DNA of 63,069 nucleotides, counting the filler, from Basidiobolus ranarum (Eukaryota): NCBI GenBank assembly GCA_040143965.1. It is 45 parts of 45 records of this genome, joined end to end, with 100 filler letters (N's around TTAATTAATTAA, not from the genome) between each part and the next. Parts side by side here need not be neighbours in the genome. Positions count along the whole stretch, not along the records: positions 4,232 to 5,540 come from JASJQH010005597.1; 44 more parts are not named here. One strand, written 5' to 3'. The position numbers and the translations under genes were made by a program. This document shows positions 4,132 to 56,022 of the stretch, piece after piece. How positions within the stretch are numbered: position 1 is the first letter of the stretch; each line of letters begins with the position of its first letter. The notes under the pieces are model-generated. The model did no database searches. It had not been told where the DNA came from and worked only from the letters and a program-made list of their open reading frames with translations.

Positions 4132-4232
4132 NNNNNNNNNNNNNNNNNNNNNNNNNNNNNNNNNNNNNNNNNNNNTTAATTAATTAANNNNNNNNNNNNN
4201 NNNNNNNNNNNNNNNNNNNNNNNNNNNNNNNC

Positions 4233-4613
4233 CCTCATACCCAGGCTGGGCACTCACTTCAGAAAAGAGGAGGCAGAGGTGGTTGGGATGACTGCTGTGA
4301 TGATTGTTGTGATGACTGCTGCTGGGATGATTGCTGTGATGACTGTTGTGATGATTGCTGTGATGATTGTTGTGATGACTGCTGCTGGGATGATTGCTGT
4401 GATGACTGCTGCTGGGATGACTGTTGTGATGATTGCTGTGATGATTGTTGTGATGACTGCTGCTGTGATGACTGTTGTGATGATTGCTGTGATGATTGTT
4501 GTGATGACTGCTGCTGGGATGATTGCTGTGATGATTGCTGCAGTGATGACTGCTGTGATGATTGCTGCTGGGATGATTGCTGTGATGACTGCTGTGATGA
4601 TTGCTGCTGCTAG
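4233..4613 (+). CDS. Secreted Asp/Cys-repeat peptide precursor, copy 1 (5'-truncated by contig edge): PHTQAGHSLQKR-GGRGGW(DDCC)25 with W/C/S spacers, ends CCC-stop
   Basis: 126 open codons to TAG at 4611-4613; variation among repeats is almost all synonymous in this frame (GAT/GAC, TGT/TGC); identical to the N-terminally complete copy at 5356. Confidence 0.85.
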   Translation, partial: PHTQAGHSLQKRGGRGGWDDCCDDCCDDCCWDDCCDDCCDDCCDDCCDDCCWDDCCDDCCWDDCCDDCCDDCCDDCCCDDCCDDCCDDCCDDCCWDDCCDDCCSDDCCDDCCWDDCCDDCCDDCCC

Positions 4614-5274
4614 CCAATTAGCCAAGTCAGTGACCATAGGCCCATGCAAAGGATCCCAAAGAATTTTGTTTTGTAAACCAAGTGCCTTCATTGCCACCAT
4701 CTTTTTGACTTCCTTTGTTCCCCATTTTGAAAACTACTATGAAATAAATGTTTTTCCCTGATTGAAAATGATTCCACTTGTTCATCCAATTTTGCTCCCA
4801 ACAACAAATTATGGGATTACTCTCCAAGAGAAGCAGCCAATATTTCCACTTCTTAGGGTTAGTGAAAAATAATAATATTTAATGGGAAAGGGCTACAAAA
4901 TTGGAAATCCCAACTTGGAAAATTTTAGCATCTCTTCTTAGGCCACTGGCTAATTTCCTAAATTTCATCCTGGATGGGATTGGAACCCATCACCATCAGA
5001 GTGATCAGTTTCATCCCAGCCACTAGGCCATCACCAGCTTATATGAGATTATGATGATGACTCCAATTAATCTGTTCACTTGATGGGCTAGACCCAATTG
5101 GATCTGAGAGTTGAGTATAAGACAGGTGGCAGTGATTATAGCTATCAGCAGCCTAGAAATCAAGCATGAGCCAAAGGTCAGTGATCATGGATATTATCAG
5201 CATGGGATGTGAGGAGTATCCAATGGCCTGATTTCCATCCCATCAGGGTTAGAAGTCTCATGTTAGTCTTCTTG

Positions 5275-5281
5275 TATATAA
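5275..5281 (+). promoter_or_regulatory. TATA box of the DDCC peptide gene
   Basis: TATATAA about 80 nt upstream of ATG 5356, followed by a pyrimidine-rich leader. Confidence 0.6.
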
Positions 5282-5355
5282 GAGGAGTATTTGCTTCTAC
5301 ACTTAGCACCAACCTCTTCATCCCCACAGCCAATCTTCTATTCTATATCTCCAAT

Positions 5356-5540
5356 ATGAAGTTCTCCATCTCCAAAGTTACCTTGGTTACCCTGTTCAGT
5401 CTTGTTTTCATGAGCAAGGTACTCTCCCTCCCTCATACCCAGGCTGGGCACTCACTTCAGAAAAGAGGAGGCAGAGGTGGTTGGGATGACTGCTGTGATG
5501 ATTGTTGTGATGACTGCTGCTGGGATGATTGCTGTGATGA
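5356..5540 (+). CDS. Secreted Asp/Cys-repeat peptide precursor, copy 2 (5' part; runs off contig)
   Basis: MKFSISKVTLVTLFSLVFMSKVLS signal-peptide-like segment, then LPHTQAGHSLQKR pro-segment ending in a Kex2 site, then GGRGGWDDCC repeats. Confidence 0.85.
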
Positions 5541-7049: not shown

Positions 7050-8358
7050 TCACTACCAGAATCTGAAAAGTCAAGGTTTCTTTGAGAACACGTATGATCA
7101 TGCATTTGCATTGGCTCTGGATGGTTTCTCACTAAACAAATATACCATTGGAAAGGCTTGCTGGCCAATAATTTTAATCAACTTAAATCTTCCTCCTTCT
7201 GAACGGTATAAGAGTCATAATATTTTGATACTATCCATCATATCTGGACCTAAATCACCAGTGCTTATAGATAGCTTCTTGGAGCCTTTGATTACAGAAT
7301 TTGAATGGTTATCTAATGGGGTTCAGATGGGTGAATATTTTATTAAAGCTAATATCATTGTATGTATTGGTGACACTCCTGCCATCAGTAAACTTGGAGG
7401 TTTTTGTGGGCACAATGCACTATCCTGCTGTAGATTTTATCAAATTAATGGAGTTTACTCTAACAGGCATACACATTACTAGTATCCAAATACAACACTA
7501 AACTTCATGATTTTGCTGTCAAGAGCCCAGTCAGATTTCAACATGATCACTGATATTGATTTACCAAATAGTCAGTCTAACATCAAACTTAGCATTAGCC
7601 ATAAGCTTAAGATTATATTGCTAAAAGGGATTAGCTGGAGCCAGAGCATCCCTTTATGCACTATGCACTTACTATTCAACAACATTCTTAAACTGCTTAC
7701 TCAGCTCTATGGTGGAAAATTCAATATGAATGAGCTGCTCAAGATAAGTTCAAAGATTGAATTGATTGGGAAAATGCTTGAAAAATTCAAGATACCATTG
7801 TATTTTACCAGGACTCCCATCAATATCCACTCATCTGGGCATTTATTCAAATGCAAAGACTGGTATTATTGGAGTTGTATATATTCAAGTGGAATTTTGA
7901 AAAGATTTCTGCCTGATAAGTATTGCAACATTGGGAGTTGTTTGTCAATATTGTTGATATATACTTATGGCATCTACTCACATTGGCCGATCTCAGTCAG
8001 ATACAGCAACTGTGTGAAGATTTTGTAATTGAATATGAAAACTTTATTACAGGTTTAAAGAAGATAGACTGAATCTATGCCAGTATTCAATACATTCCCT
8101 GCTGCGTCTTTCACAATGCTTAGAGATTATAGGCCCTTGCTATACATCCTGGGAGTTCCCAATGGAGCACACCTGTGGTGAAATGATGCTCTGTGTGAAA
8201 TCATTGGTATTACTGTATGCTAATCTGATTAACAATGTATTAGCAAAATCAGTGATGGATGTAATGTGATGGGTTAAGGAGACTCCAGAGTAAATTAACC
8301 TCCCACTAAAGGGCTCTGTTCAATGTGCTCATGGGTTTTTGCATTGTTTAAGCACAAT
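7050..8358 (+). pseudogene. CACTA/EnSpm Tnp2-family transposase (Transposase_21 plus DUF4218 region), frameshifted
   Basis: LDGFS...CWPIILINLNLPPSERYK...GPKSP...GDTPAISKLGGFCGHNA, then decayed SIHSLLHL and WEFPME motifs. Confidence 0.92.
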
Positions 8359-8494: not shown

Positions 8495-9766
8495 ATTCAG
8501 AAGGAGAAAATTCTGAATTGATTAAAATTATTGGCTAGCAAGCCTTTCCAATGGTACATTTGTTTAGTGAGAAGCCATCTGGAGCCAATGCAAATGCATG
8601 ATCATATGTGTTCTCAAAGAAACCTTGACTTTTCAGATTGTGGTAGTGAAATCCATGAAGTATATTGGTAATACCATCAGCTTTACAGTAAGTACTTGGG
8701 TATTGGATCAATGATCTATATTTGAGTGATTTCATCAAAACTTTAAGATGGGGAATCAATGGTATGTAAACCAAAAATGAACGATATTTACTTGATTGAG
8801 TGATTTCCAATTGTGTGCAAACAGTACATGACTTCAGGTTTTTCAGATCACCGGCTAAAGCCAAACAACCATTTGGACATCAAGGTAGTTTAATTACTGA
8901 GGGATTATAAGTCATACAATTGACAAAGGTTTTCCACTTGTGCCAGGTCTGTGGCAAGCAACAGTTGCCAATCAAATGTGGTAAAGGTGCAAGAAAACCA
9001 ATAAACACCTGCTTGCTAAAATTGGATTGAACTCTCAACTCCTCAATAATCAAAGCTGCCTCCTTTACAGTAAGTGTCTTGAGTGGACTAATGTTTTCCA
9101 GTAACAAAGAGTCCATAACAAGACCTTCTTCTTCTTCTTCAACTTCTGATATACTACCTTTGGTACTGGAATAACCAAGGTCACTATCTAACTGTAAGTC
9201 CTCAAAGTTGTCTGGACTTACTGGTTTGACCAAAGTTTCATTATGACCTATATCATACTGGTCATATAACTGTGGTAACTCCATGGTATCTTGACTTTTG
9301 GCTGTGTTACCAAAACTTTGAGGTAAACAAAAGTCAGTGGACTCAATGGGCAAAAATAAAGTTGATTTAGTGCACTTATTACTGTTGCTATACAACAGGC
9401 TTTGTGGAGCTAGTGGCTTTGTACAGTGACCATGATTGTGATTATTTTTTCAATTAAGTCCCCGGCTTTCATAGCTCAAGAATTTGTGACAATAATAGCA
9501 GGGCATCTTTAAATGTTGGTGTTGTGGCATGAGAAGGATATTGTAAAAAAGGAACACCTCCCACATAAGGGTGATATTTTAGGTATAGCCCTTCAATATC
9601 AGCAGCTGATTCTGAGATAGTGTCACAGATGAGTCATCAAGGGATTTACAAGATATTTCTGGTAATGGATGGCAATTTTGGTTTATTTTAAGCTGTGTCT
9701 GAGCAATTTTATTACACCAAGTTTACCATCTGAAAATTTCAATGCCATTCAAAAAGCATTAAAAAT
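8495..9766 (-). mobile_element. CACTA transposase N-terminal half and upstream region
   Basis: ORFs 8535-8864 and 8880-9395 overlap the start of the 7050 copy. Confidence 0.85.
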
Positions 9767-12681: not shown

Positions 12682-13988
12682 ATATTGCAGTGTTATGTGC
12701 TTGTCATGGCCTGTATAGTAGATTCTTAGTTCTTACTTATGACTGAATACAAATCATTATGGTGTTCTGCCTGCAATTCCCTGGTTGTAATATGTTAACC
12801 AAATTTTCTATGGAGGGTTGTTCAACAGTGAGCAAAGTAGCAATTTTGGAAGTTGATGGGCTTGATGATGTTTTGGGTGAACTTTGCTCAGCTATTGATT
12901 TACTATGTAATTGGGGGTTTACAATCTCTTTACTTGCACTATTGCTTGAAAGGAACATGTCTGGTAAATTGATTAATGCTTCATCATTACTTGAGTTAGT
13001 TTCTGGCAAGTTAATGTCTTCCAAAGTGGATAGTGGATTGCTAGACTGCTCATCAATTAAGTCCTATGTTCTTGGTGGTTATTTTCCTTTTGTGCCAGTA
13101 GGCTTTGGCTTGTAAGCTGATTTTGATTTAGTTTTGAATGCTTTTTGAATGGCATTGAAGTTTTCAGATAGTAAACTTGGGGTAATGAAATTGCTTAGAA
13201 ACAGCTTAAAATAAACCAAAATTGCCATCCATTACCAGAAATATCTTGTAAATCCTCTGACAACTCATTTGTGACACTGTCTGAGAATCAGCTGATGATA
13301 TTGATGTGCTATACCTAAAATACCACCCTTGCTTGGGAGGTGTTCTTTTTCTACAATATCCTTCTCATGCTGCAACACAAATGTTTTAAGAAGCACTGAT
13401 ATCATTGTCACAAATGCATGTGCTATGAAAGCTGGGGGCTTCACAGAAAAAATAATCACAAGCATGGTCACTGTACAAAGCCACTAGCTGCATAAAGCCT
13501 GGTGTATAATAACAATAATAAGAGCACTAAATTGACTGTAGTTTTGCCTATTGAGTCCACTGACTGTAGTTTTCCTCAAAGTAATGGTAACACTGCCAAA
13601 AGTCAAAATGCCATGGAGTTACCACAGTTATACAACCAGAATGATGTATGTCAAAATGCAACTTTGGTCAAACCACTAAGTCCAGACAACTTTGAGGACT
13701 TGCTGCTAGATGTTGACCCTGTTTATTCCAGTATCAAGGGTAGTATATCAGAAGTTGAAGAAGAAGACAATGGTTTTGTTATGGACTCTTTGTTATTGTC
13801 AAACATTAGTCCACTCATGACACTAACAGTAAAGGAAGCAGCCTTGATTATTGAAGAGTGGAAAGTTCAATCCAATATTAGCAACCAGGTGTTTATTGGT
13901 TTTCTTACACTTTTACCACAGTTGATTGTCAACTGTTGCTTGCCACAGACCTGGTACAAGTGGAAAACACTTGTCAATCATATGACTT
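12682..13988. mobile_element. CACTA-type element divergent region (ORF1 on minus; transposase N-terminus on plus from about 13502)
   Basis: Reverse complement of the 1-640 region; ORF 13502 matches 8880-9395. Confidence 0.82.
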
Positions 13989-46915: not shown

Positions 46916-47518
46916 CTTTTGATATTATTGATCCAGCACCACTCTGGAGAGCTTTGAGCTGGATTCAGGTAGCCCAGCCCGAGAGTAAACGCTCCTAAAC
47001 CACCATGACACTAGAATCATATCAAATTAGACCAAATGAAAGTGCAAATATCTCTTCAAGCAACTTACTCTTCTCCAGCAATATCCACCTTGGCAGCCAC
47101 AAATGTCTTTGTTTCCTTTTTGCTTGGTAACTCCACAGTGGAGACCTTTCTCCTTTTCAACCTTTTCCCAGCCTTCCTGGAGAGCAATATTGCGATCAAT
47201 TGCATTACCTAGCACTCCGCCAGCAATACTACCGTCAACACCTCGCTTTTCCACTGAGTTGTCTGGCTGATGTGAGCTAACAATGAACTCTTCCAATATT
47301 TTGACACATTCCTTGAATCTCTCCTCCATGCCTGTGTGAAGACTCTGCAAAGTAGCTGGAAAGCTGTCTCCACATGCTTTAGCCTTCTTGTACAACTCCA
47401 CATACTCTGGGTTAGCAGTGAGTTCAGGCTGATTGCATCCATTAGGAGCAGCAATAGTTGGTATAAGCAGAGAAATGGTGGCAGTGCCAATCAAGACAAA
47501 TTTTTGAAAGCAAAGCAT
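46916..47518 (-). CDS. Secreted Cys-rich protein, spliced (exon 47518-47069, intron 47068-47011, exon 47010-46916; further exon uncertain)
   Basis: Signal-peptide-like N-terminus, internal EKR Kex2 site; GTAAGT...CTAAT...TAG 58-nt intron joins CGCQGGYCWRR to CHGG...PEWCWIN; next donor GTACGT. Confidence 0.8.
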
Positions 47519-48475: not shown

Positions 48476-49077
48476 AAAAGCCCAGTCAGAATTCAACATG
48501 ATCACAGATATTAATTCACCAAATAGTCAGTCTAACATCAAGCTTGGTATTAGCCTTAAGCCTAAGATTATATTGCTAAAGCAGATCAGCTGGAGCCAGA
48601 GCTTCCCATTAGGCCTATGCACTTACTATTCAACAACATTTGAATACTACTTATTGAGCTATATAGTGGAAAATTTAATACAAATGAGCCATTCAAGATA
48701 GGATCAAAGTTTGAATCAATTGGGAAAATGCTTGAAAACATCAAGATATCACCATATTTTATCAGGACTCCCATCAATATCCACTCATCTAGGCATTTAT
48801 TCAAATGCAAAGACTGGAAGTATTGGATTTGTATATATTCAAGTGGAATCTTGAAAAGATTTCTGCCTGATAAGTATTGGCAACATTGGGAGTTGTTTGT
48901 CAATATTGTTAATATATTCTTACGGCATCAACTCACATTGGCAGATCTCAGGCAGATACAGCAACTGTGCAAAGATTTTGTAATTGGATATGAAAAACTT
49001 TATTACAGGTTTAAAGAAGATAGACTGAATCTATGCCAGTATTCAATACATTCCCTGCTGCATCTTTCACAATGCTT
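48476..49077 (+). pseudogene. CACTA transposase (DUF4218 region)
   Basis: FKCKDWKYW...FVIGYEKLYY...SIHSLLHLSQC. Confidence 0.9.
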
Positions 49078-55882: not shown

Positions 55883-56022
55883 TGTTGAAATTATTTAGCG
55901 AGAAATATTGGTCTGGCCAGAAATTGAACCTGGGACCTCCCTCACTCTAGCAAGGTGCTCTAACCACTGAGCTACCAGTCCTTGTATGCTATGCCTATAT
56001 TGCTAGGGAACCTTAACCTAGT
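55883..56022 (-). mobile_element. About 140-bp element with a tRNA-like core (55909-55981); best-preserved copy
   Basis: GGACTGGTAGCTCAGTGGTTAGAGC...GGTCCCAGGTTCAATTTCTGGCCAGACCA; anticodon stem imperfect. Confidence 0.72.

Follow-up and report, generated by a model that had tools for sequence, protein, structure and literature searches.

A predicted exported Asp-Asp-Cys-Cys repeat protein, a candidate metal-ion binder, encoded on a cyclic contig of Basidiobolus ranarum

We analyzed a 63,069-nucleotide (nt) stretch of DNA from the fungus Basidiobolus ranarum (NCBI GenBank assembly GCA_040143965.1; hereafter the window) and found that one of its contigs, JASJQH010005597.1, closes into a cycle that gives a plus-strand open reading frame (ORF) of 151 codons from the ATG at 5356. 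The predicted product is a precursor with a signal-like N-terminus, a short pro-segment ending in Leu-Gln-Lys-Arg (LQKR) and a chain of 25 Asp-Asp-Cys-Cys (DDCC) units. By analogy, we tentatively favor the reading that this DDCC protein is an exported, Kex2-matured polyanionic thiol polymer that would serve as a high-capacity binder of metal ions, its gene being amplified for dosage like CUP1; we regard this reading as quite possible, if somewhat short of probable. The first interpretation, a secreted Kex2-matured peptide that would bind metal or be cross-linked, is partly supported; we rate the protein as a Cys-rich metal-binding or secreted repeat protein, and the whole case is drawn from the sequence of one orphan contig of 1.3 kb.

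The window consists of 45 contigs of 1298-1311 nt, ordered by size and joined by 44 identical 100-nt linkers, each made of 44 N, a 12-nt motif with stops in all frames and another 44 N. The adjacency of contigs in the window is without biological meaning, and we used the other contigs only as background and for a clue to the taxon. The contig with the DDCC gene and its two ends are as follows:

4232..5540, no strand: whole contig with the DDCC gene, 1309 nt, bounded by linkers; a cyclic assembly path with a 1198-bp unit
4232..4342, plus strand: left-hand copy of the 111 nt shared by both ends, covering pro-segment and first DDCC units; exact prefix = suffix, 100% identity
5430..5540, plus strand: right copy of the 111-nt terminal overlap, 100% identity to the left copy

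We found identical terminal 111 nt in 1 of the 45 contigs, the DDCC contig only, and matching ends of at least 8 nt in none of the other 44. The overlap begins in non-repetitive DNA, within the pro-segment of the DDCC gene, and the path around the cycle runs from the 3′ part of the gene through the 3′ flank, the promoter and the 5′ part of the gene to the same word. An exact overlap of odd length is probably the mark of a de Bruijn assembler on a cycle. The original prediction, made from this DNA alone, had described two partial copies of the gene; given the exact overlap, these are the two ends of one cyclic path, i.e. of a single 1309-nt contig. Its joining of the two ends was sound, and the overlap (4232-4342 = 5430-5540) leads to the 151-residue ORF.

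The longest exact repeat inside the contig is 74 nt, which is shorter than the 111-nt overlap. Hence, the path through the DDCC array is unambiguous at a word size of 111 nt, although identical higher-order units of the array may still be collapsed in the assembly. The simplest reading of the cycle is at least two near-identical head-to-tail copies of the 1198-bp unit; a small DNA circle is the alternative to a tandem array. The DDCC gene is the sole ORF of note on the unit, and its parts are as follows:

5275..5282, plus strand: TATA-like box (TATAWAWR), 81 nt before the ATG; single consensus match
5356..5427, plus strand: start codon and 24-codon signal-peptide-like segment, called by a heuristic rule
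5428..5466, plus strand: 13-codon pro-segment ending in LQKR, a predicted Kex2 site, called from the sequence and the motif definition
4269..4610, plus strand: codons of the mature chain, 114 residues: GGRGG followed by 25 DDCC units that W, C or S spacers interrupt
4611..4613, plus strand: TAG stop, directly after the last Cys codons
4614..5355, plus strand: spacer of the unit (3′ flank and promoter), 742 nt, 39.8% G+C
4743..4748, plus strand: AATAAA, 130 nt after the stop

Together these features form a putative complete plus-strand gene with a signal-like N-terminus, a model that is supported in silico. Downstream of the TATA-like box, no ATG occurs within 5283-5355, which makes that at 5356 the first; it has an A at -3. 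The original prediction had a TATA box upstream, and TATAWAWR is indeed present at 5275, at about chance frequency: 1.1 matches are expected per 742 nt from the other contigs, and 1.56 for AATAAA, each of the two signals being weak alone. A further in-frame ATG lies at 5260-5262 (plus strand), upstream of the TATA-like box and 96 nt before the proposed start. A start at 5260 would add 32 mostly hydrophobic residues, if transcribed; hence, the true start depends on the transcription start site.

As for other short motifs in the 742-nt spacer, CCAAT occurs 11 times on both strands vs. 3.1 expected from the other contigs, with one copy abutting the start codon. TCATCCC (two copies) and CAGTGAY (three copies) are also above expectation, several motifs having been tested. 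The only repeats in the spacer were short two-copy families, which we treated as chance.

The signal-like segment has two Lys in its first 7 residues, a 12-residue uncharged hydrophobic core with a mean Kyte-Doolittle value of 2.44, and V-L-S before the proposed cut. We found that the DDCC precursor passes a crude signal-peptide rule, as do 3 of 168 other ORFs of the window that start with ATG and have at least 40 residues; this is consistent with the signal-like N-terminus of the original prediction. One of those three, a 163-residue ORF at 47030-47518 (minus strand), combines its signal-like N-terminus with an internal EKR site and several Cys, matches no Pfam family, and may be a small secreted, possibly Kex2-processed protein.

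LQKR occupies residues 34-37 of the precursor; of the 127 residues that would be left once the signal peptide is removed, 114 lie beyond it. Kex2 prefers Arg in P1 preceded by Lys or Arg in P2, and Leu or an aliphatic residue in P4, as given in the accessible part of the source (10.1101/2020.05.27.120113). The LQKR junction, which bears out the earlier claim of a pro-segment ending in KR, fits this preference, so that cleavage is predicted, with support in silico.

The coding sequence of the mature chain from 4269 onward is the same as that from 5467 onward, by the 1198-bp offset. The 151-residue ORF contains 52 Cys, 50 Asp and 6 Trp, and the chain after its single KR has 114 residues. Its DDCC units come in blocks of 3, 5, 2, 4, 4, 2, 2 and 3, separated by 6 Trp, 1 Ser and 1 extra Cys, with another extra Cys at the end; chain length, block pattern and residue counts are all as first described. 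The mature chain has a mass of 12.7 kDa, a net charge of -49.7, a single Ser/Thr and no N-glycosylation sequon. A single-sequence AlphaFold2 model has no confident fold (predicted local distance difference test, pLDDT, 46.7; predicted template modeling score, pTM, 0.16), and we did not use it for a fold search. With 50 carboxylates and 52 thiols, compaction of the chain would need cations or disulfides.

We found two open frames of interest over the repeats:

4287..4607, plus strand: array of DDCC repeats; basic unit 12 nt, higher-order period 51 nt
4259..4609, minus strand: rival open frame of Gln-Gln-Ser-Ser units, (QQSS)n, without ATG; unit differences are silent here too

The 12-nt unit has 6 nucleotide variants, in which only nt 6, 9 and 12 vary, always between C and T, and all 25 units agree at the other 9 positions. 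Hence, all differences among units are synonymous in the DDCC frame, as the original prediction had noted. However, they are equally silent in the minus-strand QQSS frame, so the argument from synonymous differences excludes four frames, not five. Tandem Repeats Finder reports a 51-nt period with 6.5 copies and 81% match, which corresponds to (DDCC)4 plus one Trp codon. This period suggests that the chain grew by duplicating 17-residue modules, in which case few independent substitutions, maybe only three, may lie behind the silent pattern. Across the array, five of the six frames stay open for 110 codons or more, so openness alone is uninformative. What favors the plus strand is that the array is in frame with an ATG and a putative export signal and has a stop at its exact end, that the minus frame is without ATG, and that each of the 8 internal interruptions, like the final extra Cys, is a single whole codon.

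We found no relatives of the DDCC protein in the sets searched. Pfam gave 0 families at E ≤ 10, with no metallothionein family matched, NCBIfam gave 0 matches, PDB chains gave 0 matches at E ≤ 10, and the Atlas gave no usable match; the original prediction had likewise recognized no named family. A word-indexed search of 5.8 billion clusters with the 126-residue C-terminal part gave 1600 candidates, of which 4 reached E ≤ 10 (best 0.056), and we rejected these as relatives, since they match in DDCC-like low-complexity stretches only; in the same set, the 61-residue N-terminal part matched none of 49 candidates among longer proteins. We also rejected 7 matches at E ≤ 0.001 from phmmer (1.84 billion representatives), all of which are long, unrelated repeat proteins whose period contains a single Cys and which lack DDCC.

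DDCCDDCC does not occur in the text of the literature searched, and DDCC together with secreted and cysteine-rich returned only works that are unrelated by title and abstract. Among the matches listed for secreted or extracellular metallothionein, which are on mammalian or bacterial metallothioneins, the portions available describe no fungal metallothionein with a signal peptide, and the available portions of the literature matching Basidiobolus mention no cysteine-rich secreted protein. The absence of relatives is an absence among predicted proteins, and predictors would easily miss a split low-complexity gene. The DDCC gene is of low complexity, collapsed in a leftover contig of 1.3 kb and split across the contig ends, which may explain both its escape from annotation and its absence from predicted protein sets.

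DDCC runs do occur in other proteins with export-type N-termini, as judged by eye. One is P0002, which the word-indexed search returned: 109 residues long, it begins with a signal-like segment and its DDCC-type units close with DDCCC. BLASTP of both parts of the DDCC protein vs. P0002 gave no alignment at E ≤ 100, and hence no non-repeat region that could be aligned. A scan of 185,579 prokaryote genomes with three back-translated DDCC units returned 2 loci. In Thermosporothrix hazakensis (NZ_QKUF01000008.1; L001:1285-1734), the DDCC run is in frame in a 149-residue ORF, where a hydrophobic segment at the N-terminus is followed by a His-rich stretch, then DCC(DDCC)4, a Pro-rich linker and LPPTG. 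A sortase is encoded by the next gene, and the setting is a type-2 lantibiotic cluster; the locus (L001 711-3035) also has a precursor of the mersacidin/lichenicidin family, a LanC-like domain and an ABC ATPase. In a metagenome-assembled genome (MAG; CAZRAU010000072.1, L002:1426-1557), DDCC units and a Cys run end a small protein that has a hydrophobic N-terminus followed by a Cys. Its gene is divergent from those of an ABC ATPase and a fragment of a FetB-type iron-efflux permease (87.8 bits, below the full-length cut-off), and an M23 peptidase lies downstream (locus L002 3-1557).

Like the DDCC protein, all three have an N-terminal export-type hydrophobic segment followed by DDCC-like units, 3-6 of them, and two of the three share its terminal Cys run; they differ in having far fewer units and no Trp spacers. 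We judge the DDCC runs to be convergent. The recurrence of such runs in putatively exported proteins, twice beside metal-flavored features, is a lead and not proof.

The favored reading of the DDCC gene as encoding an exported metal-ion binder would work as follows. A real protein-coding gene of Basidiobolus type, present in at least two near-identical head-to-tail 1198-bp copies, would give a product that enters the secretory pathway and sheds a 24-residue signal peptide. Kex2 would cut after LQKR and remove the 13-residue pro-segment, leaving the 12.7-kDa chain with a charge of about -50 and about 6.5 copies of (DDCC)4-Trp. This mature chain would bind metal cations, or serve as a sink for them, at high capacity, like a gene-encoded phytochelatin, with thiols taking Cu, Zn or Cd and carboxylates taking Zn, Ca or Fe, in the medium outside the cell, in the wall, or in the lumen of the secretory pathway or vacuole. 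The tandem amplification would supply dosage, as in CUP1. We infer transcription, export, cleavage, copy number of the array and metal binding from the sequence anatomy.

Several points weigh against metal binding by an exported chain. The secretory pathway is oxidizing, so the 52 Cys may form disulfides instead of thiolates. Six Trp and a putative export signal are atypical of metallothioneins. The consensus motifs of Ace1/Cuf1, Mac1, MTF-1, Zap1 and Aft1 have 0 matches in the 742-nt spacer; these five metal-response motifs are yeast and animal consensus sequences and may not apply to this fungus. No homologue in the protein sets searched speaks for conservation, and the single-sequence AlphaFold2 model is uninformative. 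Furthermore, only co-assembly ties the DDCC contig to the rest of the assembly: the best blastn match of the spacer (4614-5355) to the other 44 contigs has E = 0.13, nothing significant, so the contig may be a contaminant.

A more ambitious form of the proposal, which we consider doubtful, is that the DDCC protein would be the first natural gene-encoded exported phytochelatin-like polymer and would found a new secreted fungal class for metal sequestration, defined by (DDCC)4-Trp modules, Kex2 maturation and a CUP1-like array. The Trp residues would tether the chain to wall polysaccharide and turn the wall into a metal trap, and DDCC would be a convergent general motif for extracellular metal binding.

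Oxidation of the Cys leads to an unlikely rival, a structural or adhesive matrix, in which disulfides would link the chains densely to one another within a spore wall, a zygospore coat or a conidial adhesive, while Ca would bridge the Asp residues and Trp would touch wall polysaccharide; ultra-high-sulfur keratin-associated proteins are the model. The predicted export signal, the even number of Cys (52), the oxidizing secretory route and the sortase-type wall-anchored protein of Thermosporothrix all suit such a matrix, as does the regular Trp spacing, which is odd for a thiolate cluster protein. However, the chain has no Ser/Thr-rich O-glycosylated region, no C-terminal hydrophobic tail of glycosylphosphatidylinositol type and no Pfam wall-protein domain, a chain of 44% Asp would repel itself, and identical 1.2-kb tandem units fit recent dosage selection better than an old structural family. 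The same Asp content, in DD pairs and with a charge of about -50, together with entry into the Ca-rich secretory pathway, would suit a high-capacity, low-affinity buffer for Ca2+ or hard cations, or a polyanion that modulates minerals, with likenesses in calsequestrin and the Asp-rich shell protein Aspein and with Cys used only for disulfide stabilization. We give this little credence, since an equal number of Cys is needless for Ca binding, the C-terminus ends in Cys with no motif for retention in the endoplasmic reticulum, and we know of no biomineral in this fungal group. About as improbable is a precursor of a bioactive peptide, i.e. an anionic antimicrobial, a host-directed effector of the Kex2-processed pro-domain (K2PP) type, or a substrate cut or modified at the Trp spacers. 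According to the accessible text (PMC9391592), Basidiobolus inhabits the guts of herptiles and can be pathogenic as an opportunist, a lifestyle in keeping with such a peptide, and the predicted architecture of signal peptide, short pro-domain with LxxR/KR and Cys-rich mature part agrees with the K2PP rules as far as the available source gives them. Its single dibasic site, the lack of a modifying-enzyme gene on the 1198-bp unit and a low-complexity, non-folding mature part (pLDDT 46.7) speak against it. We know of no effector and no peptide of the RiPP class (made on ribosomes and then modified) with a mature part of that kind.

It is also improbable, to a slightly lesser degree, that there is no functional gene and that the contig is a decayed gene, contaminant DNA, an artefact of the assembly, or a satellite unit that carries a minisatellite and is open only by chance. 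An array open in 5 of 6 frames, a 1.3-kb leftover among unplaced contigs, no homologue in the protein sets searched, as few as three independent substitutions behind the synonymous pattern, and TATA and AATAAA signals that are single consensus matches at about chance frequency all speak for such DNA. Yet it would need the coincidence of a signal-like N-terminus, LQKR, an ATG in the DDCC frame, a stop at the exact array end and whole-codon interruptions, and DDCC runs behind putative export signals recur elsewhere. Coding on the minus strand, with the array as an exon of a Gln/Ser-rich (QQSS)n low-complexity protein, is hardly credible. In that frame, 4259-4609 reads through without a stop and the units differ only silently, but the frame is without ATG, is bounded by stops, has no flanking coding potential that we could see, and would need splice sites on both sides, vs. 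a complete putative gene on the plus strand.

Elsewhere in the window, an ORF at 7051-7482 (plus strand) matches Transposase_21 of Pfam; aligned over 79% of its length, it is 77% identical to a hypothetical protein (partial) from Basidiobolus ranarum, ahead of a second match at 41%, these being the 2 matches among 8 candidates. It is the only taxon clue in the window and points to an early-diverging fungus, Basidiobolus or a close relative. Related transposon N-terminal regions lie at 8880-9449 (minus strand) and 13496-13988 (plus strand), and a related C-terminal part at 48644-49075 (plus strand). The rest of the window consists of degenerate copia-type and other transposon fragments of 31-42% G+C, in which a copia integrase ORF, searched in the Atlas, matched only generic eukaryotic copia clusters. 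The sole Rfam match in the window is a tRNA gene at 55909-55981 (minus strand, 47 bits).

If the DDCC gene is real and its product binds metal, thiolate sequestration of metal in fungi would extend from the cytosol to the secretory and extracellular space. Dosage amplification of a metal-binding gene would have a second, independent example in the array, and the chain would parallel in nature the engineered (Glu-Cys)n biosorbents. If the product is a disulfide matrix protein instead, we still know of no other secreted fungal protein that would be as Cys-rich or as acidic.

Classical metallothioneins are cytosolic, lack a signal peptide, and have few or no aromatic residues. With 12.7 kDa and 52 Cys in 114 residues, the mature chain has the size and Cys content of this class, whereas it matches no metallothionein family, contains 6 Trp, and follows a signal-like N-terminus. 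On this reading, the DDCC protein would be metallothionein- or phytochelatin-like in its working, yet it falls outside the metallothioneins. It is also unrelated to the mammalian extracellular metallothioneins among the matches listed, as far as the available portions describe them.

Short tandem arrays with one gene for a Cys-rich protein are the classic route to metal tolerance in yeast. Fogel and Welch in 1982 and Mehra et al. in 1990 reportedly treat the amplification on which the dosage analogy draws. Like the DDCC gene if its cycle is a tandem array, CUP1 of S. cerevisiae and the MT-II gene of Candida glabrata encode a small, very Cys-rich product on a one-gene head-to-tail unit; their products differ in being cytosolic, without signal peptide or Trp, and not 44% Asp. 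CUP1 arrays have 2-18 repeats, and their size roughly tracks growth on copper, according to the accessible text (PMC4232551).

Among fungal precursors with a Kex2 site, Kex2-processed repeat proteins (KEPs) are secreted repeat proteins, as the DDCC precursor is by prediction. They are defined by at least 4 fragments after in silico cutting at KR, RR or KK (PMC6339444). The 151-residue precursor has one KR, no RR and no KK, so the original prediction was right to set it apart from KEPs. The K2PP rules, in the accessible part of the source, ask for LxxR, KR or RR within the chain's first half, with more than 4 residues before the motif and more than half of the chain after it (10.1101/2020.05.27.120113). 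We found LQKR, a 13-residue pro-segment and 114 of 127 residues after the motif. As described there, K2PP effectors (SnTox3 and SIX proteins) carry a signal peptide, then a short pro-domain that closes with Leu-x-x-Arg or Lys-Arg, and last a mature part rich in Cys; the DDCC precursor has a like layout, with a signal-like N-terminus. However, the mature domains of K2PP effectors are folded and globular with few disulfides, whereas that of the DDCC protein is a low-complexity repeat with no confident fold.

Phytochelatins and synthetic (Glu-Cys)n-Gly peptides have about one carboxylate per thiol, as does the DDCC chain (50 Asp and 52 Cys). Ribosomally made (Glu-Cys)n peptides, EC8-EC20, bind Cd when displayed on cells, as stated in the accessible text (PMC4292183). 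Natural phytochelatins are short, gamma-linked and made enzymatically from glutathione, whereas the DDCC chain is encoded directly in an ORF; it also differs from both phytochelatin types in its order, which is not alternating, in having Asp in place of Glu, and in being natural and, by prediction, exported. Csp1 is an exported bacterial copper storage protein that holds many Cu(I) ions on Cys thiolates. It differs from the DDCC protein in being a folded four-helix bundle with no repeat and no acidic character, and the two are unrelated in sequence (0 matches in the PDB search). Its example shows that thiolate storage outside the cytosol is feasible.

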